Below, in pieces: positions 42,972 through 61,613 of a stretch of DNA of 64,000 nt. This DNA comes from an uncultured Bacteroidales bacterium (lineage in GTDB: Bacteria > Bacteroidota > Bacteroidia > Bacteroidales > VadinHA17). The stretch lies in the NCBI GenBank assembly GCA_963733455.1, contig CAVTDE010000006.1, positions 218,373-282,372 on the forward strand. Direction: 5' to 3'. Under the pieces are notes generated by a model. That model worked only from the letters and a program-made list of their open reading frames with translations. It searched no databases and was not told where the DNA came from. Positions within the stretch are counted from its first letter, which is position 1, and the number at the start of each line of letters is the position of its first letter. The translations under genes and the position numbers were made by a program.

Positions 42972-44828
42972 TTATTTATTTATAATACCTGTTCCCTGTA
43001 AGATTGTGATATACCGGTTACAGGGGATATCCCTGTAAACTTCCTTTTTCCCGTCCGACCAGGACACCTCCAGTGTATCTACCTGTTTCTTTGTTCCGAG
43101 TCCGATGTGAAGTCGGGGATCGTTATTTGAGAGGTAGCTTGTAGCCCATTGATTTACGAAGACCTGCTTCTTTCCTGCTGAAGTTGCTGTTACCTTCGCT
43201 CCTATAGCAGCAGCCGGACCATTTTTACCCTCAAGAGTCAGACCGAGCCAATTATTTTTATTGCCTCCGTCGTTCCTTAGTAATGAAGCAGTAGCTTCCA
43301 TATCTACATGAGAAACTACAATATCCAAATCGCCGTCGTTGTCAAAATCCCAAACCGCCAGACCCCTGCCCGAACGTTTTGTCGAGAAATAGGCCCCGTA
43401 ATCCCTTCCGGCATCCCTGAAATGACCTGTACCATCATTTTCAAGCAGAAGGGGATATTGCAGTATGAGCTCTTCAGCAGTACCATTTGCAGATACTATA
43501 TCAAGGTCGCCGTCATTATCAAAATCAAATAATGCAGCACCCCAGGCACCCTTTCCTGCCATAGGTCCTGCCACACCGCCGGACTCTGTAATATCTTCAA
43601 ACATGCCATTTCCGGTATTACGGTATAATGCCCCGAAATCAAGATCGACAACGAGGAGGTCAATTAATCCGTCACCATCAATATCCCCGATTGTTCCGTG
43701 CATTGAACCTGTCCCTCTGCCCTCACTGTTTGCTGCCACACCAATCTCAACAGCTACTTCTTTAAATTTACCGTTATCATTTCTGAACATGAAATTGAGC
43801 TGATGGTCGTTAGCCTGAAAGATATCAAGGTCGCCATCGTCATCATAATCAAACACTGTTAGCCCCATGCATTTTGAGTCGGGATAATAAAGACCCGTTT
43901 TCCTTGTGACGTCAATGAATTTCCCGTCAGGCTGCTGTTCATACAACATCGATGCCTGGCCTTTATACTCCGAAGGGTGGGGCATTCGGCCAGGTGTGAC
44001 CGGAGAATCATACGAGGGATCAAAAGCCAGGAAGTTACCGGTCATAGCATCAAGCCTACCGTCGAGGTTATAATCAATATATGCCACTCCGATGCTCCAT
44101 TTTGTAAAACCGTTCAATTTCACAGGTCCTTCCAGCCCAAGTGATTTTGTAATATCAGTAAATGTCCCGTTACCATTGTTGCGATAAAATACATCCGGAC
44201 CATAATTTAAAAGATAGAGATCCTGGTCGCCGTCGTTATCATAATCTATGGCGCCTGCGGCCATACTCCAGCTTGTATTATTCAGTCCGGAAGCAGATGA
44301 GACATCAGTAAAAGTCCCATTCCCGTTGTTCCGGTAGAGATTATTCGACGTATTTCTGAATACTTTACCTTCAGGATCTGAAATGCCTTCCAGATATGTT
44401 CCGTTCATCATATACAGATCCATAAGGTGATCGTTATTGTAGTCAAAGACGGTTATTCCCGATCCGCTGCTTTCAAGGATATTCTTATAGGAATAATCGC
44501 CGAAGGTATATTTGAAGTCAATTCCGGCTTGCTTTGTAATATCCTTAAATACAATGTTCTTCTTTTGGGCAGATGCGATCGAGGGGATTAAAATGAAGAG
44601 GAGGCAAAGAAGAGTTATCAATTTGAGTTTGTTACCCCCTTTCCTGTTTCCCCCTGGGGGGAAATGATTGTTCGGAACTGTCGAAAGAGTCACTTTTAAC
44701 CGCAAAGAACACAAAGTTGTCGCAAAGTTCGCAAAGCTAAAATCTTTATTTAAACTGCTTTGCGATCTTAGGTTTAAAATCTTAGCGGCCTTTGCGGTTA
44801 ATGGAGTTTGACTTATATAATTTATCAT
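42972..44828 (-). CDS. CRTAC1-family FG-GAP/VCBS repeat protein with C-terminal ASPIC/UnbV domain
   Basis: Multiple DYDNDGDxD Ca-binding repeats; AIGAKV...SYLSNNDPRLHIGLG...V.W.DG. The N-terminal ~65 codons are REP-derived. Confidence 0.88.
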   Translation of the reverse strand: MINYISQTPLTAKAAKILNLRSQSSLNKDFSFANFATTLCSLRLKVTLSTVPNNHFPPGGNRKGGNKLKLITLLCLLFILIPSIASAQKKNIVFKDITKQAGIDFKYTFGDYSYKNILESSGSGITVFDYNNDHLMDLYMMNGTYLEGISDPEGKVFRNTSNNLYRNNGNGTFTDVSSASGLNNTSWSMAAGAIDYDNDGDQDLYLLNYGPDVFYRNNGNGTFTDITKSLGLEGPVKLNGFTKWSIGVAYIDYNLDGRLDAMTGNFLAFDPSYDSPVTPGRMPHPSEYKGQASMLYEQQPDGKFIDVTRKTGLYYPDSKCMGLTVFDYDDDGDLDIFQANDHQLNFMFRNDNGKFKEVAVEIGVAANSEGRGTGSMHGTIGDIDGDGLIDLLVVDLDFGALYRNTGNGMFEDITESGGVAGPMAGKGAWGAALFDFDNDGDLDIVSANGTAEELILQYPLLLENDGTGHFRDAGRDYGAYFSTKRSGRGLAVWDFDNDGDLDIVVSHVDMEATASLLRNDGGNKNNWLGLTLEGKNGPAAAIGAKVTATSAGKKQVFVNQWATSYLSNNDPRLHIGLGTKKQVDTLEVSWSDGKKEVYRDIPCNRYITILQGTGIINK

Positions 44829-47800
44829 TTAGCGGATCTGTCAATATTACTTTTCAATGCATTTAAATATCCATCCGAATTTACTACCCTGGTATTATAT
44901 TCCTGGATGTACTTTTGAAGTTCAGGATCATCGGGATAGATATCCGTACGGGAAGGCGGGTAACTTTTCATACCATGGAAGGGGAGAGGCATTACACTAT
45001 TGCCGAAGGCAGTGTTTAAGTCGCCATCCTTCACCCAGCCTGTAAAATTGATAAGGAAATCCCTTTTCCAGCCTTTCTTTAATTCAGGAAGCTGACCTGC
45101 ATTAAATTTAACAGTGGTTTCATCTCCCGCATTCGAGATAATATATTTATTATCCGATTCGGTCAGAAGCGGCAGTACGTCGCCAAAGCGGGTATAGTTG
45201 CCCGCCAGATCGCGCCATTTCGGATCTTTGGAGACCTTTGAATAATCAAACCAGTGCGGTCCGAAACGGCCGCCTTTTCTATAGCTTTCAGAGAACCCCC
45301 GATAATGGAGGTCAGCTGCCTGAGGGCTCAGACCTGTATAAACCAAAGGATCACTTGAAAGTGCGCCGGAGAAGAAAACATAATCCCAGGAGATATCCAT
45401 ATTTGTCCTTATCCTTATACGGTGATCGTTTGTTAGAAATTTCCCTGAAAGATCAGCAATAACCGTTTTATCCTTGCCCATAGGGAATCCCAGGTTACTA
45501 ATGACTGTCTCCCAATCGCCTTTTTTATTGATGACCTGGATAAGCGGAGGCACGACTTTTATTGAATCAGATTGTGAAATAGCAACATTAATGCTTGCAT
45601 CTGTCGGGAATATCCAGCCATTCATTAAAAGATAAAGCCTGCCTGACTGATCGGGTTTGCCGGGATCAAGTATAAGGTCTTTCATTTCAGTTATGCCCTG
45701 GTATTTGCCCGGGTAGAGACCATGAAAATATCTGTCATCCTTTTGACTGATTAAGGGGAGCACATTGTTTCCCTCTGCATCGACAGCTGAAACCGGGAGT
45801 TGCTTCGATTTAACGCTGTAAACCTCAAACCCGGGAAACGGCGGCGGAGTAAATTGTTCGGCAACAAAGATGTCTGTTGCAGCCGGGTGGTCAACAGCTA
45901 CCAGTTTTATCTTATCCAGATATATAGTCTCCCATAGTTCGGATGTAACCTGTAGGGAATAGTAGCCTTTATCAGACTTAAGCAATTCTCCCGGGATTTT
46001 AATATAATCATCCGAAGCATCCGGAAAAGCATAAGCTGTGGTCCCACCCATGATACCCAGAGGCATGCCGAGACCGCTTCGCCAAAGTACGTCTTTAACA
46101 AACACAAATTCTTCTCCGTTCCAGGTATATAAGAATGGGCAGGAGCCCTTTAGTGTCTGTGCCTCAATTAACGACTGATCTGTTTCCGGGAAGAATATGT
46201 TCTGTGGCACACCGTTGGTCCATGTGATCCGGATTACCTCAGCCATCGGGCGGCTTCCGATACCAAAATGGACATTGGGGTCAGTTACCACCATTGCCTG
46301 GTAGAGATCGCCGGCTCTTATTTCAACCTTTGCACCAATCCCAAAATGGTTGTTTTTGGCACTTCCGGCTCTTAAACCAACGAGCTTGATCCTGACAAAA
46401 TGATTGGCGTTGCCGCCATCGTTACGGAGCAGTGACACACCTCCGTTAATTCCGGCAATCACTGCATCAATATCCCCGTCGTCATTATAGTCAAACAGAG
46501 CTATCTGTCTTCCGGATTTCGGTTCATCAGGCAATATCCGGGTAGCGTCGTTGAACTGTCCTTTACCCTCATTATGATAAAGAAATATTCCCCTGCGCCC
46601 TTTTTCAGCTGCTTCGCCGGTTATTAAAAGATCAAGAAGACCATCGTTGTCAAAATCAAAGAACGCAGCATCATATACCCTGACATTCTGAATTAAGCTG
46701 AACATCTTTTCCGAATCACCTGCGGTTTCAAAACTGCCGTCCTTCCTGTTATGGTATAATTTATGGCCGGTTCCGCTATCGGAGGGGATAAACAGATCGA
46801 GAAATCCGTCATTGTCGTAATCCCCAACCGTTACTGCGCCTGAACCTCCCGTACTTTTGAGTCCTCTTTCGTCTGTAAGATCCTTATAAATCCCCTGCCG
46901 TTGATTTGAATATAAGATGTTGCCCGCGTTCTCATTAACAACGATAAAATCAAGGTCACCATCCTCATCAAAATCACCAAATGCTGCATCACGACTTATT
47001 GCATCACCATCGGCTACTCCCATTTTTTCAGCCTGTTCCTGAAATGTACCGTCCGAATTATTACGTAACAGAAGATTTTTACCTGTCCTTGCCTCAAAAA
47101 AATCAAGGTCTCCGTCGTGATCAGCATCAAAAGGCAAGACCATATTCCCTGCCGTCCTGCCACCGGTTCCGGCACGTTCCGTTACATCTTCAAAAGTCCC
47201 GGTGCCCGAATTCCGGTATAAGAGGTCACCGCTTTCCCTGACAATATAAAGATCCAGAAAACCATCATTGTCATAGTCGGCAAAAGCAGCTGAGGATTCT
47301 TTTCCTGAATGTTTTAAACCGGCCTTGTCCGACACATCAGTGAATCTTCCCATCTCGTTGTTGAACAGGTAGTGTCGGTAGGATGAAGTTCCCTGGTCAT
47401 AGCTTCCTGCGTAAAGATCTATATCTCCGTCACCATCATAGTCGGCTGCTTCAATGTGTGTTAAGTAACCGGACCCAGCCTTTTCATTTTCGCCGGAAGA
47501 TGCTATTATATTCAGTCCGGCTGAGACAGAAGCGTCCGTAAAATTAATAACCTCAAGCAGGGACTTGCCTTCATTGTTTTGTGAAACTGACTGCTGGTCG
47601 AAAGTGATTACCGGAAATCCTATAAGCGAACCGCCCGGTCCCTTTAAATCCATCATTCCGGCCTGGAAAGGAGGAGTTACTTTAAGATAATTGTGGAAGA
47701 TAGTGAATTGAAGAAGAGCTTTTGCCTTGTCCTGGGTTTTAAGGGACAAAATTGCCTGGTTAAAATAGTCTGTTGCTTCTTTTGGAAATTCCGGAAATTG

Positions 47801-48403
47801 CTTTCGGATGATCTCCATTTGTTCCATTGCCTTATCCAGCTCGTTATCGCGAATATATATCCCGGTAAGGCTTAGTCGTGGTACAATGTTTCCCGGAGCA
47901 TTTTCAACCAGCATAAGAAGGTAATTTTTATACTCCTTTTGTGACTCAGGATCTGAACCTGCAGAGTACAACTCGGAAAGATCATAAAGTATTTTAATAT
48001 GGCCGGGAGCTGACTTAAGTGCTTCCCTGAGCTCAGAGACTGCACGGTCCCGCTGGTCATTCATCTGGTATACTGTGGCCAGGATCAGCCTGATGTCAGG
48101 GTCGGCCGGATCGATCTTTATAGCTTTCAGCAGACGTTTTTCGGCTTCAGGATACCTTCCCATCCTTAAATAAGTAAGACCAAGGTTTGCATACCCAAGT
48201 TTTTCCTTAGGAGCCAGGTTAATGAATTTAAGAAACTCCTTCTCAGCTTCCTCAAGTTTAAATTCTTCAAGATAGGCGAGCCCCAGAGTTCTGGTGGTAA
48301 CCAGTTCAGTTGATTTTTGCGTTTGCTTTTCCGTCGAATTTTTACAGCTGAAAATGAAGAGAAAGCAAAATAAAACTAACAGGAGGATATAGGTTCTTTT
48401 CAT
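44825..48403 (-). CDS. Lipoprotein: TPR repeats, FG-GAP repeats, ASPIC/UnbV domain and a C-terminal domain (SCPFLY.WNG)
   Basis: IFSC lipobox, TPR helices, DYDNDG repeats, GIGAKVEI...HFGIG...W.NG, KRDFL...GWVKDGD.NT. Confidence 0.85.
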   Translation of the reverse strand: MKRTYILLLVLFCFLFIFSCKNSTEKQTQKSTELVTTRTLGLAYLEEFKLEEAEKEFLKFINLAPKEKLGYANLGLTYLRMGRYPEAEKRLLKAIKIDPADPDIRLILATVYQMNDQRDRAVSELREALKSAPGHIKILYDLSELYSAGSDPESQKEYKNYLLMLVENAPGNIVPRLSLTGIYIRDNELDKAMEQMEIIRKQFPEFPKEATDYFNQAILSLKTQDKAKALLQFTIFHNYLKVTPPFQAGMMDLKGPGGSLIGFPVITFDQQSVSQNNEGKSLLEVINFTDASVSAGLNIIASSGENEKAGSGYLTHIEAADYDGDGDIDLYAGSYDQGTSSYRHYLFNNEMGRFTDVSDKAGLKHSGKESSAAFADYDNDGFLDLYIVRESGDLLYRNSGTGTFEDVTERAGTGGRTAGNMVLPFDADHDGDLDFFEARTGKNLLLRNNSDGTFQEQAEKMGVADGDAISRDAAFGDFDEDGDLDFIVVNENAGNILYSNQRQGIYKDLTDERGLKSTGGSGAVTVGDYDNDGFLDLFIPSDSGTGHKLYHNRKDGSFETAGDSEKMFSLIQNVRVYDAAFFDFDNDGLLDLLITGEAAEKGRRGIFLYHNEGKGQFNDATRILPDEPKSGRQIALFDYNDDGDIDAVIAGINGGVSLLRNDGGNANHFVRIKLVGLRAGSAKNNHFGIGAKVEIRAGDLYQAMVVTDPNVHFGIGSRPMAEVIRITWTNGVPQNIFFPETDQSLIEAQTLKGSCPFLYTWNGEEFVFVKDVLWRSGLGMPLGIMGGTTAYAFPDASDDYIKIPGELLKSDKGYYSLQVTSELWETIYLDKIKLVAVDHPAATDIFVAEQFTPPPFPGFEVYSVKSKQLPVSAVDAEGNNVLPLISQKDDRYFHGLYPGKYQGITEMKDLILDPGKPDQSGRLYLLMNGWIFPTDASINVAISQSDSIKVVPPLIQVINKKGDWETVISNLGFPMGKDKTVIADLSGKFLTNDHRIRIRTNMDISWDYVFFSGALSSDPLVYTGLSPQAADLHYRGFSESYRKGGRFGPHWFDYSKVSKDPKWRDLAGNYTRFGDVLPLLTESDNKYIISNAGDETTVKFNAGQLPELKKGWKRDFLINFTGWVKDGDLNTAFGNSVMPLPFHGMKSYPPSRTDIYPDDPELQKYIQEYNTRVVNSDGYLNALKSNIDRSAK

Positions 48404-48428: not shown

Positions 48429-49577
48429 TTACTTCCCTGTCAGGGCCGGTATCCCATTTTTAATTCTCATCACGCTGAAGTTGTCTGAACGGTTTCCTTT
48501 ACTGTCAAACTTAATATGCCCGGTAATTCCCTCGTAATCAATTTCCGATAAAGCCTTTTGAATTTTTTCGCGATCATTGATCCCCGCGATTCTGATAGCT
48601 TCCGTTAACAGATTCATTCCATCGTAAGCATATGCTGCAACAGCTCCCGGAGTTTCACCAAAAGCTTCGGTGTACTCCTTAATAAAAGATACGGCTTTTG
48701 GAGCTGTCCATTTCCCAGAAGGGATAAGAAGAAGGTCATTGTAAGACTGAATTCCCTGGATTGATAATTCGTCTTCATTGAGTATAAACAACGATCCGAA
48801 AACCGGGATATCCTTATCCTTTTCCCTGATTTGCCTGAATGTTTCAGATGAGGAAACAGGCTTGCAAAACAGAATTATACAGTCGGCGTTTGACCTGAGT
48901 ATCTGAACGGCAATATTATTTGGACCCTGATTATCGTCTTCAATGGTGAATGCGGCAGGGGGTGGCTTTCCTTCATCTCTTACCTTATTAAGAAAACTGT
49001 TAAAGGCAAGCTTTGAGTCATAGTTCTCATTGTATACTATTGCAACAGCAGATAGTTTTCGCTTATTATAAACCTCATCGAACAAAGCCGCAGCCTGTTC
49101 GATAGTATTTGGGACACAGCTGAAATACCACGGGATAAATGCCTGGGAAAGGGTGGGATCGGCGGCCCATGCAGAGAGGAAAACAACATGTGCTTTGGCG
49201 GAAACCTGTTCGACGAGGTGAGCATTGCGGCCATCGTGAGATCCGAGTATCGCCCAGACCTTTTCCTCAAAGACGAGGTTCACAGCCTGTTTCGAACCTG
49301 TTCCCCATGGGCCCTCCATCGATCGGACCACAAGCTGGAATTTATTTCCGTTCATTCCACCGGTTTCATTGGCATTCCGGATCGCAAGTTCTGCTCCATG
49401 CCGGGCTGCGGCTGATTTGGCGTCAGTTATCAGTAATCCGATCTTTATGGGTTGGCCTGAAAGATTTACTGAAATACAGGAATTGATGATAATGATATTG
49501 ATAATGCAAACCTTATGCAGAGCTTTAAATAGTTTATTAAAGAGATACCATTTAACATTCATAAGACCGAAGCACAT
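48429..49577 (-). CDS. LivK/Peripla_BP_6-type periplasmic binding protein
   Basis: IKIGLL...GAELAI..AN..GG.NG, AAYAYDG..LL.EAI, YEGITG.I.FD.KGNR. Start codon uncertain. Confidence 0.82.
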
Positions 49578-50440
49578 GGCAATAAGATCTCCCTTCCGAT
49601 AGCAGAGGCTATTTTCCTGAGATCGTCCATCATAAGATCAAATTCATCAAGGCTAAGCGATTGGGAGCCATCACACAAAGCCTGCTCAGGATTAAAATGG
49701 ACCTCGACAATCAGGCCATCTGCTCCGGCAGCTATTGCCGCTTTAGCCATTGAAGGAACCATCCATCTGAGACCGGTCCCATGACTTGGATCAACTATTA
49801 CGGGAAGATGGGTGAGACTTTTTAGCATGGGAACAGCGCTCAGGTCGAGCGTATTTCTTGTGGAAGTTTCGAAAGTGCGTATGCCCCGTTCACAAAGAAT
49901 AACCTGGTCATTACCCTGATTCAGAATATATTCGGCAGCAAGAAGAAACTCTTCAACAGTTGCCATCATACCCCGTTTGAGTAAGACGGGTTTCCTGCAT
50001 AATCCTGCTTCTTTCAGGAGAGGGTAGTTTTGCATATTTCTTGAACCGATCTGTATCATATCGGCGTACCCGGCCACCAGTTCCACCTTTCTTGTGTCCA
50101 TAACTTCCGTTACAACTGGCATTCCGATCTCTTTTTTAACAATACCGAGTAGTTTTAATCCTTCTTCACCCAAACCCTGAAAGTTATATGGTGATGACCG
50201 GGGTTTAAAAGCTCCTCCCCTGAGTATGCTGGCACCGCTTTTTCTTACACCACGGGCAGTTTCAAAAAGTTGTTCCCTGCTTTCAACTGCACATGGACCA
50301 GCAATTATAACCACCCCGCTACCACCGGCCTCAACTCCGCCAATATTCACAATAGTCGAGTCGGGTCTTGATACGCGGTTCACTCTTTTGGGAATTGGAA
50401 AATCAACATATGCCGGATTACTGCATGAATTTGTATCCAT
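49559..50440 (-). CDS. aroF: 3-deoxy-7-phosphoheptulonate (DAHP) synthase, type I-beta, lacking a regulatory domain
   Basis: [63 protein letters not shown]. Confidence 0.92.
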
Positions 50441-50461: not shown

Positions 50462-51772
50462 TTAGTATTTTGATTTACTGCCCGATTTAAAACTCTGGTC
50501 CAAAGGAGGCGCCGGAGAAAACACAAACTTTCCCTGGCGGACCTCGGCGAGCCAGATATCACCGATATCATTCCAGCTTTTGTCAAAGACGATCCTGCCC
50601 GTAATTCCCTGGTAATTCTGAAAGGTTTTAAGGTCGGAGAGGAGATCCCGAATCAGGACCCGGTTAAGCCCGGCCTTCTTGATTGCCTCTATTATGATAT
50701 TCATACCGTCATATGCGTGGGCCGCGAAAACGTCGGGTTCCTGACCAAATCTCCTTATGTAATCTGCCTGAAATGTTTTAAGTTTAGGATTGTCATCATT
50801 GGGATTATACTGGCATGTAGTAACAATGCCTTCCGCCAGAGGACCCACTATTTTCAGGAATTCAGGCGAGACTATCCTGTCGGAAGCATAGACTGGTTGT
50901 TTAAGTCCCAGGGCACGGATCTGCTGTAAGATCAATCCTGATTCCCTTGCGTTTCCCCAGATAAGGATAGCATCGGGGGAAACTTTTTTTATTCTCTCCA
51001 GCTGATCTCTGAAATCCGATTCGCCATCGTTAAACCTTTCCTCAATTACATAGGGATAACCCATTCGCGTGGCCGCATCGGCATATTCCATGACTCCAAC
51101 CCTCCCGTAGCGGTTGTTTGCCCTGATCATTGCTACTCGTGTATGTCCCTTTTTTTTATGCATGTATTCTCCCAGAACATAACCGCTCTGACGGTCGTCA
51201 CTTATGACCCGGATAGTCCACGGAATGTTGGTCTCAGTAAAGGTGGGATCAGGATCTCCTGTGCAGACCATAAAAATCTCCAGTTTTAGGGCTGCACGTA
51301 ATGCAATATGTGAAACATTATCATCGATAGATCCAAGGAATACCCATACCTTTTCATCGTCCATTTTAACAACTTCATTTGCTGCGGCACCCCATAATCC
51401 GGCATCATTGTGAGGCATTATTTTGAACGGAAGTCCCTTGTAGCCCCCCTTCCTATTTGCTTCTTCCACTGCAAGAGTAGCTCCCTGAAACATTTGTTTG
51501 CCCTGTGGTACCAGCACCGAGTTTGTCAATGGCCCGAGAAACCCTATTCTGACTTCCGTAAGATCTTTTGGCGGCTTTTTCTCTCGTCCCGCTCCATAAA
51601 ACAGAATAGGTTCAAGAAAATGATATCTGTATGCTTTCTGATATTTCTCATACGGGAAGAGCTCATCAGGTGCTTTGCCATAATTCACTTTCTTTTCCTG
51701 TCCTTTAAGAATGGCAAGAGACAGAAAAATTGTGCATGCTGTAACTGTTAAGGATCTGAAATTAAGTTTCAT
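50462..51772 (-). CDS. LivK/Peripla_BP_6-type periplasmic binding protein
   Basis: RIGFLGPL...GATLAVEEAN.KGG, AAHAYDGM, YQGITGRIVFD; signal peptide. Confidence 0.85.
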   Translation of the reverse strand: MKLNFRSLTVTACTIFLSLAILKGQEKKVNYGKAPDELFPYEKYQKAYRYHFLEPILFYGAGREKKPPKDLTEVRIGFLGPLTNSVLVPQGKQMFQGATLAVEEANRKGGYKGLPFKIMPHNDAGLWGAAANEVVKMDDEKVWVFLGSIDDNVSHIALRAALKLEIFMVCTGDPDPTFTETNIPWTIRVISDDRQSGYVLGEYMHKKKGHTRVAMIRANNRYGRVGVMEYADAATRMGYPYVIEERFNDGESDFRDQLERIKKVSPDAILIWGNARESGLILQQIRALGLKQPVYASDRIVSPEFLKIVGPLAEGIVTTCQYNPNDDNPKLKTFQADYIRRFGQEPDVFAAHAYDGMNIIIEAIKKAGLNRVLIRDLLSDLKTFQNYQGITGRIVFDKSWNDIGDIWLAEVRQGKFVFSPAPPLDQSFKSGSKSKY

Positions 51773-51776
51773 GGCT

Positions 51777-52985
51777 TTACAAGTTTGATTTCAGCAATTC
51801 ACCGCGGCTTACACCCCTGGAAGTAGCCACCCACAGCACATCATCTTTGGCATCAACACCAATTGTAAAATTATGTGAGATCGAAGGAGATAAAGTTATC
51901 TCTTTTACATCCGTTCCTCTGGTGATTATCGCTTTACCATTTTCATCATTATCATTTTTCTTATATGTGACCCATGTCTCGCCATCGGTGCTGCTTAATC
52001 CGTTGTCGCTGCAGACAAATACCACCGGGCCTTCGGCTCTTATAAAATTTATGAAATTGCTCGCAAGGCCACTGTCCTCCTTGAAGTAGCCTCTCCAGTT
52101 CTTGCCATCGTACCGGCTCATGCCAAAATAAGTAGAAACCCACAGAATGCTGTCGGCCCATGATGTTGCTGTAGTTATATCGTGAACAAGGCCGTCATCG
52201 CGCAGCAGGTCTATCTCCATTTCACCATCGGGGTCAGTATAATCCCTGAATTTTTTAGTTTCTGTGGTATACTCAATTACTCCGCCGCCCCAGGCAGCGA
52301 TGAAAATCTTTCCACCTCCCGCCGATACACCGTATGTCCATGGTTCATGCATCGGAGCGTTTTTTTCGGTGAAAATTTCCCATTCATTAGTGAAAGTGTC
52401 CAGATGACCGGCACCTCCGGCTGTAGCAACCCAGACATCTTTCCCGTCGCAGATAACGCAATATACCAGGTCGTTGGGAAGTCCGCTGTTGAATTGATTA
52501 TACGTTGTGAATTTCCCGGAAGACCACTTTGTCAGACCCCCAAACGTTCCGAGCCACACATCACCTGTCAGTTCACTTACATCGATAGAGACTATTCCGT
52601 TATGAGCAAGGCCATCATTGGTAGTGTAGGTTCGCCATTTCCCATTTTCGTAAACAGCCAGGCCGTCGTGGGTTCCTGCCAGAACACGATCACCGTCTAT
52701 CCTTACAGCATAAGCTTTATCGGAAGGGAGACCGTCTTTTGTTGTAAAGTTGCGCCAGTGCCCATAAACAGGTACTCCTTTGGACTTAATTCCAGAATTC
52801 TTACTGATGGGGGCATTCTGGTCGTTTTCATTTGAAGAAGTCAGGGAGGATCTTTCATTTATCCTTCTCTTACCGGCAGCTGAAGAATAGACTTTGCTTA
52901 CCAGTATCCCGACAACACAAATTACAAGCAGCAAAACCAGTATTATTGTACTTCGAACAGTTCTTCTATAAAAAAATTTATTCAT
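51777..52985 (-). CDS. Exported beta-propeller protein (two-component-regulator propeller repeats), stand-alone
   Basis: Repeated W..FTT.DGL.SD/HN...vW.gT.gGl blades; N-terminal TM/signal; no kinase domain. Confidence 0.78.
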   Translation of the reverse strand: MNKFFYRRTVRSTIILVLLLVICVVGILVSKVYSSAAGKRRINERSSLTSSNENDQNAPISKNSGIKSKGVPVYGHWRNFTTKDGLPSDKAYAVRIDGDRVLAGTHDGLAVYENGKWRTYTTNDGLAHNGIVSIDVSELTGDVWLGTFGGLTKWSSGKFTTYNQFNSGLPNDLVYCVICDGKDVWVATAGGAGHLDTFTNEWEIFTEKNAPMHEPWTYGVSAGGGKIFIAAWGGGVIEYTTETKKFRDYTDPDGEMEIDLLRDDGLVHDITTATSWADSILWVSTYFGMSRYDGKNWRGYFKEDSGLASNFINFIRAEGPVVFVCSDNGLSSTDGETWVTYKKNDNDENGKAIITRGTDVKEITLSPSISHNFTIGVDAKDDVLWVATSRGVSRGELLKSNL

Positions 52986-52996
52986 GGTCGTCCTGG

Positions 52997-55033
52997 TTAG
53001 TGTGAGGCGAATTTTGCCTGATATTTTTCTTTAGGGTCCTTATAATATTCCGGTCCGCTTAATGTTTTAAGGTACTCTACCAGCTGGTTAAGTTCAATCT
53101 TGGTAAGATCATTTGCCACACCATGCTTATCTTCAGGACTGTACTTTGTCCAGATTTCTTCCAGCGACTCAGCACGCCCGTCATGAAGGTAGGGTGAAGA
53201 GGCATAGATATTGTTCAGATGCGGTGTATCTAACAGCATTGAATCGTCGGATGCTGCAAGCGTTCCCACATCCGCCATTTTCAAATTGGTATAGTATGGT
53301 GGAGGATGACAGGTAATACAACGGTTTGAAGGAGGAATGATGTTGCCTCTGGTATCAGTTGTGCGTTCAAATATTGCTTTGCCTTTAAGCTGCATTTCTG
53401 TTAATTCACCGGTTGGGTTATACTGAAGATTAGGAGGATAATAAACATCCCTCATGATATAAGCCACAATTGCATCCAGATCCTTATAATTAAAGGCTTC
53501 GGTCCTGGTCAGAACTGTTGAAAAACGGATCCCGTCCTGCCTGTACACAGTCTGGTTTTTACCACTCCATTTGTATGGAGGAGTATCGCCAATTTCCCTT
53601 AACGATTGGGTATTCGTAATATTACGGCCCATATCCTTTGAAGCCATATTATAAACCAGGCCATCTTCATGAGTGTCGGGATGACATGTACTACATGAAT
53701 ACTGGGTCTGGAAAGTATGACCGGCATTGTTAAAGAGTCTGCGTCCCTGCCTGAAAACTGTTATCCTGCGCGGTCCGCCCAGATCAATGGTGTTTACTGT
53801 TTTAAGGCTTTGTGTGTTTATAACTGCTATCCTGTCCTCTAGATGTTCAGCAACGTATAACAATTTTCCGTCAGGTGATAGTGCAAGTCCTTTGGGATTC
53901 GCTCCCGTTGGAATTCTGGCAATAACGTACATGCTGCTTATCCCCAGATGATTAGGGTAAGTCTTGAGTGTGCCGGGGGTAGAATTGCTTATTAATTTTC
54001 TGACTGAATCGATATCAACTACGGAGATAACGTTTACGCCAGAATTTGATATAAAAGCCTTCTTCCCGTCAGGTGTGATCACAACATCGTAGGGATCGGA
54101 GTAATATGCATTTGGCTCATCAAGTAACAACTGAATTAATCTTCCATTTTCCTTTTGTTCAGCTATACAAATACCGTGAGTCATCATCCACCCACGTTCC
54201 ACCTGAATTGTCGGGATCAGGTTCTTCGGACGGATCATGGTCACAAATGCCAGGTCACCCTCCGGAGTGAAACTGACGTTTTCCATCATATATACGGATT
54301 CCACATCCCTGCGTTCAGTTACTCTCTGGTTCGTGTCACTGATAAATGTAAGTTCGCTTTTCAGTGGTTCACCATAAGGAGCAAAATTTGCGCGTCTGCT
54401 TGTTACTATCAGAGCTTTTCCGTCGGGAGACAACCGGATACCTGTGGGGTTATTGCCAAGGGTGATCCTTTTACTTTCTTCTCCGGTTTGAAGGTTAATA
54501 ACGGAAAGGTTTGAAGAGTAGGAATTTACCGTGTAAAGCGATTTTCCGTCTGTGCTTAATGCCAGACCTGCCGGGCCTCCGGCAGTTTTCAGGGAATCAG
54601 TTACTTTCAGCTGTTCCAGATCAATGACTGACACATTATCAGACCATTGGTTGCTGACATAAGCAAACTTCTCATCCTTACTCAGGATAACCCTGTAAGG
54701 ATGCTTCCCGACCTGAATTTTATGGATAACCTTATTTGCCCTTGTATCCGCAATCAGCAGAACATCACCCTCTTCGGCAACTATATACAGTTTAGATCCG
54801 TCTTTTGATACCGCTAAATTAAACGGAGAATAATAACCGGCTTCTGTAAACTTCCGGATTAACCTGTTTTTGCTTATATAAAGATGACATGAAAGGCAAT
54901 TTAACGGGTGATCCGTAACACCTGTCTTTGAATAAATATGTTCACCTGCCAGCTTACGTCCGGGGAAATGAATAAACAGCCCCACTGCAAAAAGTAAAGC
55001 AACACCCAATAATATTATATAAGGCCTCTTCAT
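52997..55033 (-). CDS. YVTN beta-propeller fused to a dihaem cytochrome c peroxidase/MauG-like domain (HzsB-HzsC-like architecture), three CxxCH motifs
   Basis: CLSCH near the N-terminus; YVTN blades (P.glalspDGk.lYv); CSTCHPD, NTQSL..I.DTPPYKWSG, CITCH, TPHL.NI....PYLHDG.A.SLEE. Confidence 0.82.
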   Translation of the reverse strand: MKRPYIILLGVALLFAVGLFIHFPGRKLAGEHIYSKTGVTDHPLNCLSCHLYISKNRLIRKFTEAGYYSPFNLAVSKDGSKLYIVAEEGDVLLIADTRANKVIHKIQVGKHPYRVILSKDEKFAYVSNQWSDNVSVIDLEQLKVTDSLKTAGGPAGLALSTDGKSLYTVNSYSSNLSVINLQTGEESKRITLGNNPTGIRLSPDGKALIVTSRRANFAPYGEPLKSELTFISDTNQRVTERRDVESVYMMENVSFTPEGDLAFVTMIRPKNLIPTIQVERGWMMTHGICIAEQKENGRLIQLLLDEPNAYYSDPYDVVITPDGKKAFISNSGVNVISVVDIDSVRKLISNSTPGTLKTYPNHLGISSMYVIARIPTGANPKGLALSPDGKLLYVAEHLEDRIAVINTQSLKTVNTIDLGGPRRITVFRQGRRLFNNAGHTFQTQYSCSTCHPDTHEDGLVYNMASKDMGRNITNTQSLREIGDTPPYKWSGKNQTVYRQDGIRFSTVLTRTEAFNYKDLDAIVAYIMRDVYYPPNLQYNPTGELTEMQLKGKAIFERTTDTRGNIIPPSNRCITCHPPPYYTNLKMADVGTLAASDDSMLLDTPHLNNIYASSPYLHDGRAESLEEIWTKYSPEDKHGVANDLTKIELNQLVEYLKTLSGPEYYKDPKEKYQAKFASH

Positions 55034-55036
55034 TTC

Positions 55037-56473
55037 TTATTCCAGTTCTATCTCCTTTTCATTCAGTTTTGATTTGTGCACAGGTATCACATGAGGAGGT
55101 TTACTTACTGAAAGGCAGTACCTGTTATCAGGAGCCAGCTCCTGATCTTCATGACAACCTGCACAGCCCCTTCGCTCATTTGGCCGTAAATAAATCCAGT
55201 CACAGGGTCCGTTAAGGACATTCCCCTTATCATCAATAGTTTGTATCCTGAACGGAATATCTGCCAGTACTTTTAAATAGAACGAACCATCAGTTTCAAC
55301 GTGGACGGTGCCAAGTAATGAATCAATTCCGATAACCTCAATCCGTGAAGCTTTTGGGACTGAAGTTCCCTCTGTAGCTGATCCGTTTGAACGGGAATTC
55401 ATGTCCTGGCATAGCAATAAGCCTGTTTTAACTCCCATATCAACTTCACTGGGTAGTTTCCTGGGCCGTTCATAAGTTTGAACCACGACAGCTTCAACCA
55501 CATCATAATCCGGATTATCATAAATCATCCCGGAAGTGACCTGTTTACCTCTGTCAAATTCATAAAGTGAATAATGATCTGAATCAGCGGGTTTGTAAGA
55601 GACCAGTAACCTCGTCGTATCAACAGGAAAAACATCCAGAAAGGTGCCTTTAAGTGCGTTGGTAAGATTGACCCTTGAATGCAACGGCCTTTTATAATTT
55701 ATAGATATTACATTTCCTTTGTCCTGGTTTATGGGATCTGATTCTATAAAAACCACTTTGCCATCGGGTGTTTCCCGGACACGGTTTAGCAGAACATTTC
55801 TTTCATGGCTTTTATAGAACATCTCCGCCTTTGTTCCATCGGGTCGCATCACTGTCAGAATGGCGTCTCCCTTCTCAGGGATCACTGGTCTGTCGATACA
55901 AACGATACGTCCGTCCTTTAAAATATCCGAGGCAAAATATACATCCGGAGTGAAAGAGATCTGATTAAGTCCTGACCCGTCAAGATTAATTGTACAAAGA
56001 GAATGCGTGGTTTTTAAAGTATCATTGTCTGTAAATTTACTGAATACAATCTTACCGCCGGGCAGGTAAGCAGGATCGATGCAGTTTTCAGTTGTTGTGG
56101 TTACCTGCCGTATAGAAGCATCCTTTAAATTCATTTCCCATATCTGCCATGGATCATTTTCAGTCTTTTGCCCGGCAAACAATAACCTCTTGGCATCCCA
56201 TGAGACTTCAGGCGACCGGGCGGAAAAGAAATCTCCGGAAATCACCTTGATTGATTTCACGGGGTTTTTAGGATCAAATGCAATTATTTGTGACTCAGGA
56301 ATATACCTCCATAAATCGCCTGTTATAAAGTTTTTAATCCCCATTTTCCCTCTGACCTGTGTCAAAATGATCTCCCCCTGGGTAATCCCTCTGGTGCATG
56401 ATGGAAGGAAGTATCCTGAAGCGACAAGACTTAATATGATAGAAAATAGGTTAAACTGTTTCCTGAATCTCAT
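55037..56473 (-). CDS. Hydrazine synthase alpha-subunit-like lipoprotein (TolB-like propeller plus HZS_alpha middle domain, one CxxCH)
   Basis: LPSC lipobox; PEVSWDAK.LLF, WQIWEM, DPAYLP.G.IVF, PDGTK blades; DGSFYLKV.ADIPFRIQTID..G...W.YLRPNERRGCAGCHE. Confidence 0.8.
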   Translation of the reverse strand: MRFRKQFNLFSIILSLVASGYFLPSCTRGITQGEIILTQVRGKMGIKNFITGDLWRYIPESQIIAFDPKNPVKSIKVISGDFFSARSPEVSWDAKRLLFAGQKTENDPWQIWEMNLKDASIRQVTTTTENCIDPAYLPGGKIVFSKFTDNDTLKTTHSLCTINLDGSGLNQISFTPDVYFASDILKDGRIVCIDRPVIPEKGDAILTVMRPDGTKAEMFYKSHERNVLLNRVRETPDGKVVFIESDPINQDKGNVISINYKRPLHSRVNLTNALKGTFLDVFPVDTTRLLVSYKPADSDHYSLYEFDRGKQVTSGMIYDNPDYDVVEAVVVQTYERPRKLPSEVDMGVKTGLLLCQDMNSRSNGSATEGTSVPKASRIEVIGIDSLLGTVHVETDGSFYLKVLADIPFRIQTIDDKGNVLNGPCDWIYLRPNERRGCAGCHEDQELAPDNRYCLSVSKPPHVIPVHKSKLNEKEIELE

Positions 56474-56485
56474 AAAAGGTTCATT

Positions 56486-58183
56486 TTAAGGTTCCCTGAC
56501 AGTAAGAATCTGGTTAGCACTGACATTTTCCAATACCTGAGTTTTGCCTGAAGGCCATTTTATTTCGATCTTATCTGCCATTACGTTTTTAGCGAGGCCG
56601 AAGTGTATCCTTGGATCATTCTGGGAGAGGTAGCCTGTCGTACTTCTTTTCTGGGTGGTCTGGGTTTTGCCTCCGGCGGTAAGTTTCACCCTTGCGCCGA
56701 TGCCGTCACGGTTACTTGTTTGTCCGACAAGATTAAGGATCAGCCAGTTATTTTGATTGCCCTTATTGTTTCTCAGGAACACAGCCTGGTCATTAAGATT
56801 CACAATAAAAGCATCAATATCGCCATCGTTGTCATAATCACCAAAACATGCCCCGCGTCCTACAAATTCTTTATCAAAATACCTTCCTCTTTCCCCTGAA
56901 ACATCCTTGAATTGTCCGTCCCCCATATTCTCGAATATCTGATCTTCCTGACCGTACAGGTGCTTCAGCGCTCCATTGGTTTTAAAGATATCAGGATCAC
57001 CGTCATTATCGTAGTCAATAAATGAGGAGGACCAGCCAACAAACTGTCCGGCAGCCATTGCGATGCCGGAAGGGTATGATTTATCACTGAAAACGCCATT
57101 CCCCAGATTCTCATACAGCGAACAGTATGAATCATCGGAAACGAAAAGATCCAGTAACCCGTCTGCATTGAAATCAGCAAAATCTACTGACATACTGATT
57201 GTAGCTTCCCCTGCCTGGCTGAATGCTGTTCCCGACATTGTTCCCCTGTCGGAGAATCCCTTACCCCCGTCGTTGTGCCAGAGGTAATTCAGTGAATGAT
57301 CATTTGCAACAAAAACATCTGTAAAACCATCGTTGTCATAATCAGCTGCTCCGACACCCATTGCCCTTCCGTCAATATCGGTGATCCCCATGGTTGAGGT
57401 GACATCTTCAAACAAACCATTCCCTTTGTTGTGATATAAAACATCCTTCTGGCTGTCATATGCCATCGGGCCCGGGAAACCGTCGGGGGCATAATAATAT
57501 TTGTATTGCGGATCAAAATAAAGGTAATTGCCAACGTACAGGTCGAGCAGTCCGTCATTATCATAATCAAACCAGGCAGCACCAACACTGCATTCATTTC
57601 CTCCGCTGACACCTGCGCGTTTTGTTACGTCCGAAAAGGTTCCGTTTCCGTTATTCTTTAACAAAATATTAGGGCCATAATTACTTATGTACAGATCGGG
57701 GAAACCATCATTGTTAAAATCACCTGCTGTCACGCCCATACCATATCCATGTCCGGCTGCACCTGCTTTCACTGTAACATCTTCAAAGGTTCCATCCTGA
57801 CGGTTATGATAAAGATGGTTATGAGGCAATTCTTCGGGCTTCTCGCCTTTACTGAATCCATCCAGCCATGTACCACTGCATGCATAGATGTCAATGTACC
57901 CGTCCTGGTCATAATCAAAAAAAGCCGCACCACCACCAACTGATTCTACGATGTTATTAAGATCCTTGTCCCCGATAGAGTGAACAAAATCCAGGCCGAT
58001 TGCCTGGCTGATTTCCTGAAAAAAATCATTATTTGCCACCGGGGCAGAGGCTGATTGTGGTTTTTTTACATTAGATGAATCATTTCCGGACTTGCATCCC
58101 GGAAGTATCAGAATAAGAACGAGAAGGAACTGTATGTGCCTGTACCCATTCCTTCTAAAGTAATTATTAAATTGTATACTCAT
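56486..58183 (-). CDS. CRTAC1-family FG-GAP repeat lipoprotein with ASPIC/UnbV domain
   Basis: LPGC lipobox, DYDNDG repeats, NRDGIGARV...GYLSQNDPRIHFGL...I.WPSG. Start moved to the ATG at 58183 because a -7 box overlaps the ORF-track start. Confidence 0.88.
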   Translation of the reverse strand: MSIQFNNYFRRNGYRHIQFLLVLILILPGCKSGNDSSNVKKPQSASAPVANNDFFQEISQAIGLDFVHSIGDKDLNNIVESVGGGAAFFDYDQDGYIDIYACSGTWLDGFSKGEKPEELPHNHLYHNRQDGTFEDVTVKAGAAGHGYGMGVTAGDFNNDGFPDLYISNYGPNILLKNNGNGTFSDVTKRAGVSGGNECSVGAAWFDYDNDGLLDLYVGNYLYFDPQYKYYYAPDGFPGPMAYDSQKDVLYHNKGNGLFEDVTSTMGITDIDGRAMGVGAADYDNDGFTDVFVANDHSLNYLWHNDGGKGFSDRGTMSGTAFSQAGEATISMSVDFADFNADGLLDLFVSDDSYCSLYENLGNGVFSDKSYPSGIAMAAGQFVGWSSSFIDYDNDGDPDIFKTNGALKHLYGQEDQIFENMGDGQFKDVSGERGRYFDKEFVGRGACFGDYDNDGDIDAFIVNLNDQAVFLRNNKGNQNNWLILNLVGQTSNRDGIGARVKLTAGGKTQTTQKRSTTGYLSQNDPRIHFGLAKNVMADKIEIKWPSGKTQVLENVSANQILTVREP

Positions 58184-58207
58184 AGCAATTGGGTTCAGCA
58201 AAGGATG

Positions 58208-58246
58208 CAAATATAAAGATAATCTGACTTCAATGTAACAAAGTTA
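58208..58246 (-). promoter_or_regulatory. Candidate promoter of the minus-strand cluster: two TAnnTTTG boxes in the divergent spacer
   Basis: The reverse strand reads TAACTTTG (58246-58239) and TATATTTG (58215-58208). Confidence 0.5.
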
Positions 58247-61300: not shown

Positions 61301-61613
61301 TAATGCAAATGCTAAGCTCCCTTTGGCTGACGTTAATACTGTAAGTCAATATCCGTCCACAGCATTCCTGGAAAATGGTTCATTCCTTCGGTTAAAAACC
61401 CTGCAGTTAGGTTATAGTTTGCCGAAGAATATCAGCCAGCAACTGAACATAACAGGAGTTGAGATCTTTGTTGAGGGAACTAACCTGTTCACTATCACCA
61501 GGTATAAAGGACTCGATCCTGAACTTGCAATCGGAGGGGTTGACCTTGGGGTTGATGATGGTCAGTGGCCAACTGCACGGCAGTTTGTTGTCGGAATCAG
61601 GCTTGATATTTAG
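58308..61613 (+). CDS. susC: SusC/RagA-family TonB-dependent transporter
   Basis: PLFVIDG, IESLTVLKDASSAAIYGARGANGVILITTK, R.DGSSRFG..NRWG.FP, ENGSFLRLK. The start may be the ATG at 58350. Confidence 0.95.
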   Translation: MKYFLKTKPKFIKSMTKNFALVVSLLPQFKKLTLTLKVITMLLAFCTIQISASTNSGGIVSSDDLQKKTVSGHVTDAAGTALVGVNVIEKGTVNGTVTDVSGKYSLNVTSEKSVLTFSFIGYTTQDVIAGAGATLDIVLAESLSALEEIVVVGYSTQVRKSLTGAVTTISAEAMAKETTANAITRLQGKASGVNILNAKAPGGGANITIRGLGTINNNSPLFVIDGVPTKSSMSELNPDEIESLTVLKDASSAAIYGARGANGVILITTKRGAAGKPKVSFSARYGSSKFSKYYNLLNTQEYGELLWLEAKNQGIAPSNILYGTGSTPVIPDYIVPAGKMEGDPLVNAALYNHTPGSGFYNITKANKQGTDWYATILQPGIMNEYNLSLSGGSEKGTYAFTAGYYTEKGIVKYTGFDRYSLRANSDTRLTDWLSIGQSLGLTYSVGHGNRDENGEGIPISQAYRMQPIVPVYDIAGNFAGTKATGTGNGENPLAMLFRDRDDISHNLRGIGNAFAEIQILKGLRFKSLFGFDYRPYDSKDIFRQNPEFQESKPTDILNMYSGSTTQWNWANTLNFTRVIGANHTVNLLLGSEAVSVRSFDMSASRSTYFSDDVNYMYLNSGEKDQTNGGGGSAVKWMSYFGRLNYNYKDKYLAEATFRRDGSSRFGVNNRWGNFPAVSAGWRISEESFMANAKNFINNLKIRAGWGKSGNDEIGNYNGFSTYGSNSESSFYSINGSVSSATAGFYASALGNPNARWETTSTTNVGLDVAVLNNNLSATIDVWQRKTIDMLFQLAIPNVSGAASAPSVNIGDMNNKGFDLNITYQNKSMGGELTYSAGLTLSHYKNKIVKLSNKETEFINGSDFRQMTYTRATKGTSFPEFYGLIVDGYFATQEEADAYAPEYGGTYNLAGHFKFRDVNNDGVVNNDDRTYIGSPHPKFTAGLNADVAYKGFSLSAFFYTVYGNKIANYVSRWIDYTQFTGNRTKDRLYNSWGSPYLTNNANAKLPLADVNTVSQYPSTAFLENGSFLRLKTLQLGYSLPKNISQQLNITGVEIFVEGTNLFTITRYKGLDPELAIGGVDLGVDDGQWPTARQFVVGIRLDI

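Follow-up and report, generated by a model that had tools for sequence, protein, structure and literature searches.

A hydrazine synthase-like gene pair and its conserved cluster in an uncultured Bacteroidales bacterium

The window analyzed here, a stretch of 64,000 nucleotides (nt) from an uncultured Bacteroidales bacterium (GenBank assembly GCA_963733455.1, contig CAVTDE010000006.1, positions 218,373 to 282,372), carries two adjacent minus-strand genes predicted to encode distant paralogues of the anammox enzyme hydrazine synthase (HZS): an HZS-alpha-like protein of 478 amino acids (aa), designated A478, and a fused HZS-beta/gamma-like protein of 678 aa, designated BC678. Both are exported haem proteins, lipid- or membrane-tethered, with HZS anatomy. 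At a probability of roughly 60%, we read them as a complex of the published HZS-like clade III that is not a hydrazine synthase and works as a periplasmic haem redox enzyme with an active site of the bacterial cytochrome c peroxidase (bCcP)/MauG type. To our knowledge, hydrazine synthase was long held to be without relatives. The preliminary description of this DNA treated the pair as an unrecognized oddity, which it is not, as such pairs and a discussion of HZS origin already appear in PMC12758564 and PMC10732223; the pair is a further case of a kind described in 2023 and 2025. Statements on the cited articles refer to the parts of them covered here. The features of the pair are as follows.

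55037..56473, minus strand: A478, HZS-alpha-like lipoprotein with a TolB-like six-bladed propeller, an HZS_alpha middle domain and one haem c motif
55151..55165, minus strand: CAGCH haem-binding motif, A478 residues 437-441, from an alignment of 68 homologues
55139-55141, minus strand: Glu445 at His+4 of A478, kept in 63/68 homologues
56132..56155, minus strand: DPWQIWEM motif, A478 residues 107-114, invariant in 68/68 homologues, with its core QIWEM also in Kuenenia HzsA
52997..55033, minus strand: BC678, fused HZS-beta/gamma-like protein with a membrane anchor, haem segment, YVTN propeller and di-haem domain
54884..54898, minus strand: CLSCH, extra N-terminal haem motif, BC678 residues 46-50, right after the predicted membrane helix
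53681..53695, minus strand: CSTCH, BC678 residues 447-451, counterpart of haem gammaI and of the bCcP/MauG P haem
53306..53320, minus strand: CITCH, BC678 residues 572-576, counterpart of haem gammaII and the E haem
53567..53569, minus strand: Trp489 of BC678, invariant in 59/59 homologues, aligned with Kuenenia gammaHis144 and the inter-haem Trp position of bCcP/MauG

The open reading frames (ORFs) of A478 (55037-56473) and BC678 (52997-55033) are separated by 3 nt. A478 has an N-terminal lipobox (...LPSC) and a single CxxCH motif, CAGCH, at residues 437-441, in which Cys437, Gly439, Cys440 and His441 are invariant in 68/68 homologues; the motif is followed by E-D-Q-E (Glu442, Glu445), and the protein ends 37 residues past the motif His. 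Pfam HZS_alpha was detected at 2e-17 (64 bits; cut-off 26.6), and the best NCBIfam family was hydrazine_alpha (2.7e-37). Searched with phmmer against the Protein Data Bank (PDB), the protein retrieved 5c2v_A, the alpha subunit of Kuenenia HZS, at 7.7e-32, with TolB as runner-up at 0.15, and the family profile matched 5c2v_A at 1.8e-40. The AlphaFold2 (AF2) model (pLDDT 87, pTM 0.84) gave the same top match in Foldseek (E 6.5e-26, query-side TM-score TMq 0.77), followed by TolB at 0.45.

BC678 begins with a hydrophobic helix, predicted to be a membrane anchor, and a short extra haem segment; a seven-bladed YVTN propeller (~67-410) and a di-haem CCP/MauG-like domain (~420-660) follow. Its three CxxCH motifs are CLSCH46, CSTCH447 and CITCH572. 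The first is present in 45 of 59 beta-gamma-like homologues and missing from the 14 acidobacterial-type ones; the second is followed by an invariant Asp457; and for the haem of the third, His637 (59/59) or Tyr631 (52/59) are candidate sixth ligands. Pfam returned YVTN-type propeller families together with CCP_MauG (PF03150; 34.4 bits, cut-off 25.6), and NCBIfam returned hydrazine_BC (9.2e-73), hydrazine_beta (1.4e-63) and hydrazine_gamma (7.2e-23), besides QH_beta (6.4e-14) and, weakly, MbnH-family di-haem enzymes (1.1e-7). Against the PDB, the single sequence matched 5c2v_B (Kuenenia HZS beta) at 4.2e-53 and 5c2v_C (gamma) at 1.8e-16, and the family profile matched them at 2.4e-72 and 2.7e-34. 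The AF2 model (pLDDT 82, pTM 0.87) had 5c2v_B as its top structure match both in Foldseek (E 2e-33, target-side TM-score TMt 0.91) and in VIA (Z 48.2, root-mean-square deviation 2.3, 341 residues aligned, 31% identity). Sequence similarity thus relates A478 and BC678 to all three HZS subunits (alpha, beta and gamma), and fold comparison relates them to alpha and beta. What the preliminary description had drawn from the letters alone, a 478-aa lipoprotein with CAGCHE lying 3 nt from a 678-aa protein with three CxxCH motifs, related to the three HZS subunits, is borne out by the ORFs, the motifs and the NCBIfam, PDB and fold matches, and the profile check that it proposed, with HZS_alpha and CCP_MauG, found both above the Pfam cut-offs; the structural match to HZS subunits that it called for was found for alpha (5c2v_A) and beta (5c2v_B).

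The pairing of the two genes extends well beyond the window. A word-indexed search with A478 yielded 1428 homologues among 8000 candidates scored, and a full scan of 1.84 billion cluster representatives yielded 3601 matches at E <= 0.001, 1420 at <= 1e-10 and 366 at <= 1e-30. In a scan of species-representative genomes, 80 loci were recovered, most of them labelled as metagenome-assembled genomes (MAGs) of Bacteroidales/Bacteroidota; 22 were acidobacterial (Acidobacteriaceae, Terracidiphilus and similar), and one each was labelled Chloroflexota, Armatimonadota and 'uncultured bacterium'. A beta-gamma-like gene lay downstream on the same strand in all 73 loci with enough flank, the other 7 loci being too short. 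The match is far beyond chance; the same pair recurs in 73/73 such loci, and the search and fold scores agree. The Bacteroidales and Acidobacteriaceae carriers come from soils, peat and sediments. The locus labelled Chloroflexota (L046) has a beta-gamma-like protein 60% identical to that of the window and SusC/SusD homologues flanking its cluster; it resembles a misbinned Bacteroidales contig or the product of a very recent transfer.

Gene pairs of this kind have been reported before. Dalcin Martins et al. 2023 (PMC10732223) described hzsA-like genes upstream of fused hzsBC-like genes in Phycisphaerae UBA1845 and proposed a broader family of HZS-like enzymes acting on other substrates. In GTDB and RefSeq searches for HZS homologues, Hagglund et al. 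2025 (PMC12758564) delineated four non-anammox clades with alpha-like genes next to fused beta-gamma-like genes. In their clade III, the gene order runs from FG-GAP/CRTAC1 through alpha to beta-gamma, with two genes for ATP-binding cassette (ABC) substrate-binding proteins downstream; beta-gamma carries one extra haem motif, and alpha is without haem alphaII and its C-terminal part. In clade II, the order is alpha, FG-GAP, beta-gamma, with no extra haem. The homologues have a gap at alphaSer590/Tyr591, no alphaCys303, Trp in place of gammaHis144 and a lost beta-loop Glu, and the authors concluded that they cannot make hydrazine and discussed the implications for the origin of HZS (PMC12758564). 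The window has the clade III order (a 574-aa FG-GAP protein, A478, BC678, with gaps of 12 and 3 nt), and its locus agrees with every clade III descriptor in the main text of that article, including Trp at the gammaHis144 position. The pair is accordingly placed in the published HZS-like family, matching clade III, by the described features of its sequence and gene order. The loci of the acidobacterial relatives fit clade II (PMC12758564): alpha, FG-GAP, beta-gamma and no extra haem. The main text of PMC12758564 leaves the taxa of clades II and III unnamed and contains the string 'DAHP' 0 times, and the parts of it covered here make no mention of a Rid-family gene, a Reg_prop propeller, a two-component system, SusC/SusD or a 1192-aa protein with tetratricopeptide repeats (TPR) and FG-GAP repeats. 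Among the matches listed in a literature search on hydrazine synthase or hzsA-like genes in Bacteroidetes, no title or abstract dealt with Bacteroidota HZS-like genes. Added here to the published clade descriptions are the strict pairing count, the extended cluster common to Bacteroidales and Acidobacteriaceae MAGs, and the finding that the source genome also encodes cytochrome c maturation of system II.

Two further types of HZS_alpha protein were encountered in the order of the source genome. In locus L085 (5040-9322; genome G144), an 821-aa protein, whose match to HZS_alpha (4.4e-35) is full-length, is encoded ahead of a 606-aa CCP_MauG/cytochrome c protein; this different HZS-like pair has no adjacent FG-GAP or binding-protein genes and may represent another of the published HZS-like clades. 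At locus L086 (3463-7446; genome G086), a 1327-aa protein combining NPCBM, HZS_alpha (2.4e-39) and FGE-sulfatase domains is encoded beside a sulfatase gene, and ORFs of 780-1345 aa resembling it are the source of partial matches in 11 of 301 genomes. HZS_alpha was also detected in the Bacteroides thetaiotaomicron control, so HZS-like complexes are not the only setting in which this middle domain occurs.

Set beside Kuenenia HZS (5C2V), the pair shares the alpha-type TolB-like propeller and middle domain, with a haem c motif in the same place and the QIWEM motif; the seven-bladed YVTN propeller of beta, including the inserted loop in its sixth blade; and the di-haem bCcP/MauG-like domain of gamma. 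As in Scalindua HzsBC, beta and gamma are fused, and the HZS-type genes are adjacent. The pair differs from anammox HZS in having alpha before beta-gamma, in an alpha-like protein without the alphaII haem domain and in one extra N-terminal haem on beta-gamma, and a large insertion in the Kuenenia alpha propeller is missing from A478. The absence of the alphaII bis-His haem domain, asserted in the preliminary description, is evident from the single CxxCH of A478 and from matches to 5c2v_A that end at chain position 561-563 of 782. The full HZS architecture claimed there stands only in part: the three modules are present, but alphaII is missing, and gammaCys165, gammaAsp168, gammaHis144 and betaGlu253 are replaced.

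Residues were compared using chain-to-residue offsets derived from the alignments and published numbering (alpha +27; gamma +39; beta +34, from the VIA entry numbering), and the HZS features tested included His587 and Cys303 holding zinc and betaGlu253 as magnesium ligand in the tunnel loop. In HZS, Tyr591 is the ligand of haem alphaI, and beta and gamma are fused in Scalindua (PMC12758564, PMC10732223), both facts being correctly given in the preliminary description; gammaCys165 makes a third covalent bond, gammaHis144 stands in the gammaI pocket (PMC12758564), and gammaAsp168 supplies protons at haem gammaI (PMC12607021). At the alphaTyr591 position, Kuenenia reads CSGCH-YGS and A478 reads CAGCH-EDQE; there is no conserved Tyr, and Glu445 occupies His+4, as had been noted, and is kept in 63/68 homologues. 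The zinc ligand alphaCys303 (chain position 276) aligns with His223 of A478 in a non-conserved stretch. In the gamma-like domain, the gammaHis144 position is Trp489 (59/59), gammaAsp168 aligns with Phe504, and gammaCys165 falls in a 5-residue gap (single sequence) or opposite Asp500 (family profile); BC678 has no Cys between residues 451 and 571, so the domain is without a third Cys. The magnesium ligand betaGlu253 (chain position 219) aligns with Gln277 (Gln in 45/59, His in 14/59), and the nearby Glu279 (56/59) aligns with another Glu of Kuenenia beta. By alignment, then, all six HZS-specific residues tested (alphaTyr591, alphaCys303, gammaCys165, gammaAsp168, gammaHis144 and betaGlu253) are replaced; the pair is therefore predicted not to be a hydrazine synthase and to make no hydrazine. 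A related but different reaction, as the preliminary description had it, is a sensible reading.

The gamma-like domain retains hallmarks of bCcP/MauG. The inter-haem Trp is a hallmark of the bCcP/MauG family, in which the E haem is His-Tyr ligated in MauG-type enzymes, which act on proteins, and His-Met ligated in canonical bCcP (PMC11892367). Like MauG, MbnH (6E1C) and Nitrosomonas bCcP (1IQC), BC678 has two CxxCH motifs in its CCP_MauG domain, the inter-haem Trp and a PYxHDG...LEE block (PYLHDG in the BC678 family). Tyr631 (Tyr in 52/59, Phe in 6/59, Asn in 1/59) is aligned to a Tyr of 6e1c_A and, in an ungapped alignment, sits in the region of the E-haem Met ligand of 1IQC, where BC678 has no Met; His637 is invariant and common to HZS gamma. 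BC678 departs from bCcP/MauG in that its di-haem domain follows a YVTN propeller in the same chain and has an alpha-like haem propeller as partner, and over the whole protein BC678 matches HZS gamma in the PDB at 1.8e-16 and bCcPs at 0.01 or weaker. The domain looks like an ancestral bCcP/MauG state.

The host can be expected to mature such proteins. The source genome (Bacteroidales, from soil or sediment; non-anammox Bacteroidota, as originally described) is near-complete (98.8%) and encodes a 1034-aa fusion of ResB and CcsA, which belongs to system II of cytochrome c maturation, so that the check for maturation genes proposed in the preliminary description came out positive. It contains 11 stop-to-stop frames with at least three CxxCH, BC678 included, and, apart from BC678, a CCP_MauG protein of 406 aa; at 98.8% completeness, no NrfA was detected. 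The only frame with 8 CxxCH gave cytochrome c7/c3-type matches and none to hydroxylamine oxidoreductase (HAO) or hydrazine dehydrogenase (HDH); a search of the genome with the HAO-type Pfam family Multi-haem_cyto found nothing and is uninformative, as the control also went undetected. On contig C3 (264872-268002) of the same genome, two adjacent frames carry 20 and 19 CxxCH (562 and 493 aa) with cytochrome c7/c3 and MtrC-like matches, and further frames carry 8, 7, 6, 6 and 5, an unusually rich multihaem set for Bacteroidales that suggests extracellular or metal-linked electron transfer. Two proteins of ~520-530 aa, on contigs C5 and C3, each join a tetrahaem domain of the NapC/NirT type with an FGE-sulfatase (SUMF1-like) domain. 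Sixteen sequencing runs containing DNA of the source were listed (best share 0.33); all were of DNA type with no RNA run among them, and they are uninformative on expression or habitat.

Eleven window genes run consecutively on the minus strand from 58210 to 40688 with gaps of -19 to +25 nt, and the pair is the core of a predicted co-transcribed operon of 9 to 11 genes. The other genes of this operon and the divergent genes beside it are listed below.

56486..58210, minus strand: FG-GAP and ASPIC/UnbV (CRTAC1-type) lipoprotein, 574 aa, first operon gene, 12 nt upstream of the A478 gene
51777..52985, minus strand: membrane-anchored Reg_prop beta-propeller, 402 aa, from Pfam and a match to 4a2l (1.2e-19)
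50462..51772, minus strand: LivJ-type binding protein (Peripla_BP_6), 436 aa, with no ABC permease nearby
49559..50440, minus strand: type I-beta 3-deoxy-D-arabino-heptulosonate 7-phosphate (DAHP) synthase, 293 aa, cytoplasmic, NCBIfam 445.8 bits (cut-off 335), an extra, cluster-specific copy
48429..49577, minus strand: second Peripla_BP_6 binding protein, 382 aa, listed start uncertain
44825..48403, minus strand: TPR, FG-GAP and ASPIC/UnbV lipoprotein, 1192 aa, of which ~450 C-terminal residues match no family
42972..44828, minus strand: third FG-GAP and ASPIC/UnbV protein, 618 aa, overlapping the 1192-aa gene by 4 nt
40688-42962, minus strand: last two operon genes, for an Asn_synthase-domain protein (442 aa) and a 317-aa protein without a family match, overlapping by 8 nt
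58308-61613, plus strand: SusC-like TonB-dependent receptor, divergent from the operon
61650-63407, plus strand: SusD-like lipoprotein, divergent from the operon

When all ORFs of 81 loci, the window included, were clustered into families, the FG-GAP family was present in 75/81 loci, the beta-gamma-like family in 72/81, the alpha-like family in 71/81, the binding protein family in 67/81, the DAHP synthase family in 62/81 and the Reg_prop family in 60/81. Less general were a Rid-family protein (46/81), a histidine kinase (30/81) and a response regulator (28/81), both of the latter in Bacteroidales-type loci and L046, as well as SusD (26/81) and SusC (24/81); an amidase occurred in 11 loci, acidobacterial only (11/22). 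SusC and SusD homologues flank the cluster in 23 and 25, respectively, of 55 Bacteroidales-type loci, window included, and also in L046, while homologues of the last two operon genes were found in only 1 and 2 of 80 related loci. Most Bacteroidales-type loci have a ~190-aa Rid-family gene between the Reg_prop and binding-protein genes (L003, 14672-15292) and a response regulator and histidine kinase upstream of the FG-GAP gene. The acidobacterial order is DAHP synthase, alpha, FG-GAP, beta-gamma, Reg_prop, Rid, binding protein. Acidobacterial clusters also showed, upstream of the alpha-like gene, a 904-aa cytochrome c554-type and TPR protein and a cytoplasmic amidase, and one acidobacterial locus has a full reductive pyrimidine-catabolism set next door (L071, 748-3462 and 7409-8851; L057, 1610-9263).

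Several neighbours were considered individually. The Reg_prop match, 4a2l, is a periplasmic sensor domain from a hybrid two-component system of Bacteroides; the window protein is without kinase domains. The listed ORF of the second binding protein shares 19 nt (49559-49577) with the DAHP synthase gene, and a candidate lipobox (...NSC) lies in its N-terminus, which makes both the start and the processing of this protein uncertain. The two Peripla_BP_6 genes of the window are the only ones above cut-off in the source genome, and the best solved relatives of both binding proteins bind amino acids. An ordinary ABC importer was rejected for them, there being no permease or ATPase among the conserved cluster families and a single BPD_transp_2 permease in the genome, on another contig. 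The other DAHP synthase of the source genome (371 aa) has a C-terminal extension and is read as the housekeeping DAHP synthase-chorismate mutase fusion; a KdsA-like gene is also present. The Rid-family protein weakly matches FkbO/Hyg5 (1.7e-8 and 1.6e-5; cut-off 325 bits) and similarly RutC and RidA; a chorismatase role for it is no more than an idea. Among the matches listed in the literature on bacterial ASPIC/UnbV or CRTAC1-type proteins, none addresses function.

In the reading that we favor, A478 and BC678 would form a membrane-tethered periplasmic complex, a four-haem oxidoreductase with two reaction sites. Electrons would pass via the membrane-proximal CLSCH46 haem and a six-coordinate CITCH572 haem, and Trp489 would carry them to or from an open-sited catalytic CSTCH447 haem, in a domain keeping bCcP/MauG features. 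The His-ligated CAGCH437 haem of the alpha-like subunit could be a second reaction or binding site, reached via an internal cavity as in HZS. The substrate would most likely be a small nitrogen compound, either an amino acid, amine or amide or one of the nitric oxide (NO)/hydroxylamine (NH2OH) type. The two orphan LivJ-type binding proteins would deliver it, the FG-GAP/ASPIC proteins and the Reg_prop propeller being putative accessory or sensing parts, and the reaction might be either a peroxide-driven oxidation or an electron-fed reduction. The extra N-terminal haem, being membrane-proximal and kept in 45/59 homologues, could plausibly substitute for alphaII. A nitrogen-compound substrate is hinted at by the amino-acid-type binding proteins, the Rid-family and amidase genes and the sensor-like propeller, joined in many Bacteroidales loci by a two-component system and SusC/SusD, as is an aromatic link by the extra DAHP synthase. 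Little weight attaches to these hints, since Rid, amidase and DAHP synthase belong to the cytoplasm and the window has only part of them.

The formation of a complex was examined by structure prediction, which covered alpha-like residues 27-478 and gamma-like residues 415-678 with alignments of our own. The runs gave ipSAE interface scores of 0.47, 0.50 and 0.46, compared with 0.00 for all three controls, and shared at least 77% of contacts with partner pLDDT of at least 73. Of 80 solved complexes, 58 reached the ipSAE mark used, and of 110 mismatched pairs, 2 did so; at ipSAE <= 0.60, just 7 of the 80 solved complexes passed, as did both passing mismatches. A predicted complex, on which the preliminary description had staked its proposal, was thus obtained, but it was graded 'weak support', and the pass may reflect mere likeness to the solved 5C2V.

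A number of observations weigh against the reading just set out. The complex prediction, made for the alpha-like protein with the gamma-like domain of BC678, offers it weak support. The gamma-like domain, on which the proposed catalysis would depend, is the least confident part of the model (pLDDT ~47-69 at residues 450-520 and 580-630), and the structure matches of BC678 in the Foldseek and VIA lists all come from the propeller, none from this domain. The sixth ligand of the CITCH572 haem is ambiguous between Tyr631 and His637, judging from the alignments. The idea of a nitrogen substrate rests on neighbours only, and among these Rid, amidase and DAHP synthase have no signal peptides and hence belong to another compartment than the haem proteins. 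The window cluster has no Rid gene (site 51772-51777) and no two-component system, and the source genome has no Rid orthologue of this type. Lastly, the module is patchy in the source order: near-full-length alpha-like genes (E <= 1e-150) occur in only 6 of 301 sampled genomes, source genome included.

The alternative that survives best, itself unlikely, is a peroxide-detoxifying cytochrome c peroxidase, in which a gamma-like bCcP would reduce H2O2 to water with electrons of the respiratory chain, and the propeller and alpha-like cytochrome would serve as scaffold and electron donor. bCcPs are common in microaerotolerant anaerobes, the CCP_MauG match exceeds its Pfam cut-off, the inter-haem Trp is invariant, and the host is rich in c-type cytochromes as possible donors (the 11 frames with at least three CxxCH). 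The source genome already has the separate 406-aa CCP_MauG protein, however, and Tyr631, not Met, stands at the E-haem ligand position in the ungapped alignment with Nitrosomonas bCcP; moreover, detoxification leaves unexplained the strict coupling, in two phyla, to an alpha-like haem propeller, three FG-GAP proteins, binding proteins and a DAHP synthase.

A shade less probable is that the complex handles NO or hydroxylamine reductively. It would then catalyze the first half-reaction of HZS alone, or else reduce NO, nitrite or NH2OH in some related way, serving detoxification or the assimilation of nitrogen in soil without oxygen. This would suit the best overall similarity, which is to HZS and not to bCcPs, as well as His637, common to the bis-His, low-potential gammaII haem region of HZS, the extra membrane-proximal haem, which suggests electron input, and the failure to find NrfA in the source genome. 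It fits poorly with the replacement of the proton supplier gammaAsp168 (PMC12607021) by Phe504, of gammaHis144 by Trp489 and of gammaCys165, which lies in a gap or opposite Asp500, and no other nitrogen-oxide genes are linked to the cluster.

More doubtful still is a maturase of the MauG/MbnH type that would use H2O2 to oxidize a residue of a partner (the alpha-like, a binding or an FG-GAP protein) into a protein-derived cofactor, the modified partner being the real catalyst. The best-known targets of MauG-type enzymes belong to amine dehydrogenases with seven-bladed propellers, and BC678 has the QH_beta match (6.4e-14) and the weak match to MbnH-family di-haem enzymes (1.1e-7). Trp489 is invariant, Tyr631 (52/59) aligns with the MbnH Tyr, and the E haems of MauG-type enzymes, whose substrates are proteins, have His-Tyr ligation (PMC11892367). 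Yet Tyr631 is replaced by Phe in 6 and by Asn in 1 of the 59 homologues, His637 is invariant and occurs also in HZS gamma, and the role of the aligned MbnH Tyr as haem ligand is an inference; no target residue was identified, and the alpha-like haem site is left unexplained. A true divergent hydrazine synthase, with cryptic anammox-type N-N bond formation in Bacteroidales, has only the shared three-module architecture and gene adjacency in its favor and can practically be dismissed, given NCBIfam scores 6-fold (alpha, NF052339: 128.1 vs 800 bits) and 5-fold (BC, NF052342: 245.5 vs 1250 bits) below the cut-offs and likewise low for beta (215.2 vs 560 bits) and gamma (81.1 vs 625 bits), a missing alphaII, the replacement of all six tested residues, a lone 8-CxxCH frame that matches cytochrome c7/c3 and not HAO/HDH, and the like conclusion of Hagglund et al. 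for the family (PMC12758564).

Returning to the clade III complex as a non-hydrazine-forming haem redox enzyme, a broader and rather doubtful extension of it can be entertained. HZS-like complexes might be widespread two-site, cavity-linked haem enzymes of anoxic soils and sediments that form or cleave a bond to nitrogen, with the near-invariant His441-x3-Glu445 replacing the HZS Tyr/Zn and the DAHP synthase hinting that a substrate or cofactor made for the system is aromatic; in that case, the anammox enzyme would be a single specialized offshoot of this chemistry. If this were true, an example of such chemistry would be the oxidation or condensation of an amino-acid- or amine-derived substrate handed over by the dedicated binding proteins.

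The value of the finding is that of a lead, not a discovery. Comparison of the clusters gives it testable parts, namely the binding proteins and, in Bacteroidales-type clusters, the two-component system. Such genes also give HZS-family matches, which are open to misreading as anammox potential in metagenome annotation. HZS-like homologues are the only handle on how hydrazine synthase arose, and the window locus provides a clean and complete example of them, with all haem motifs intact, a maturation system present and a near-complete genome.

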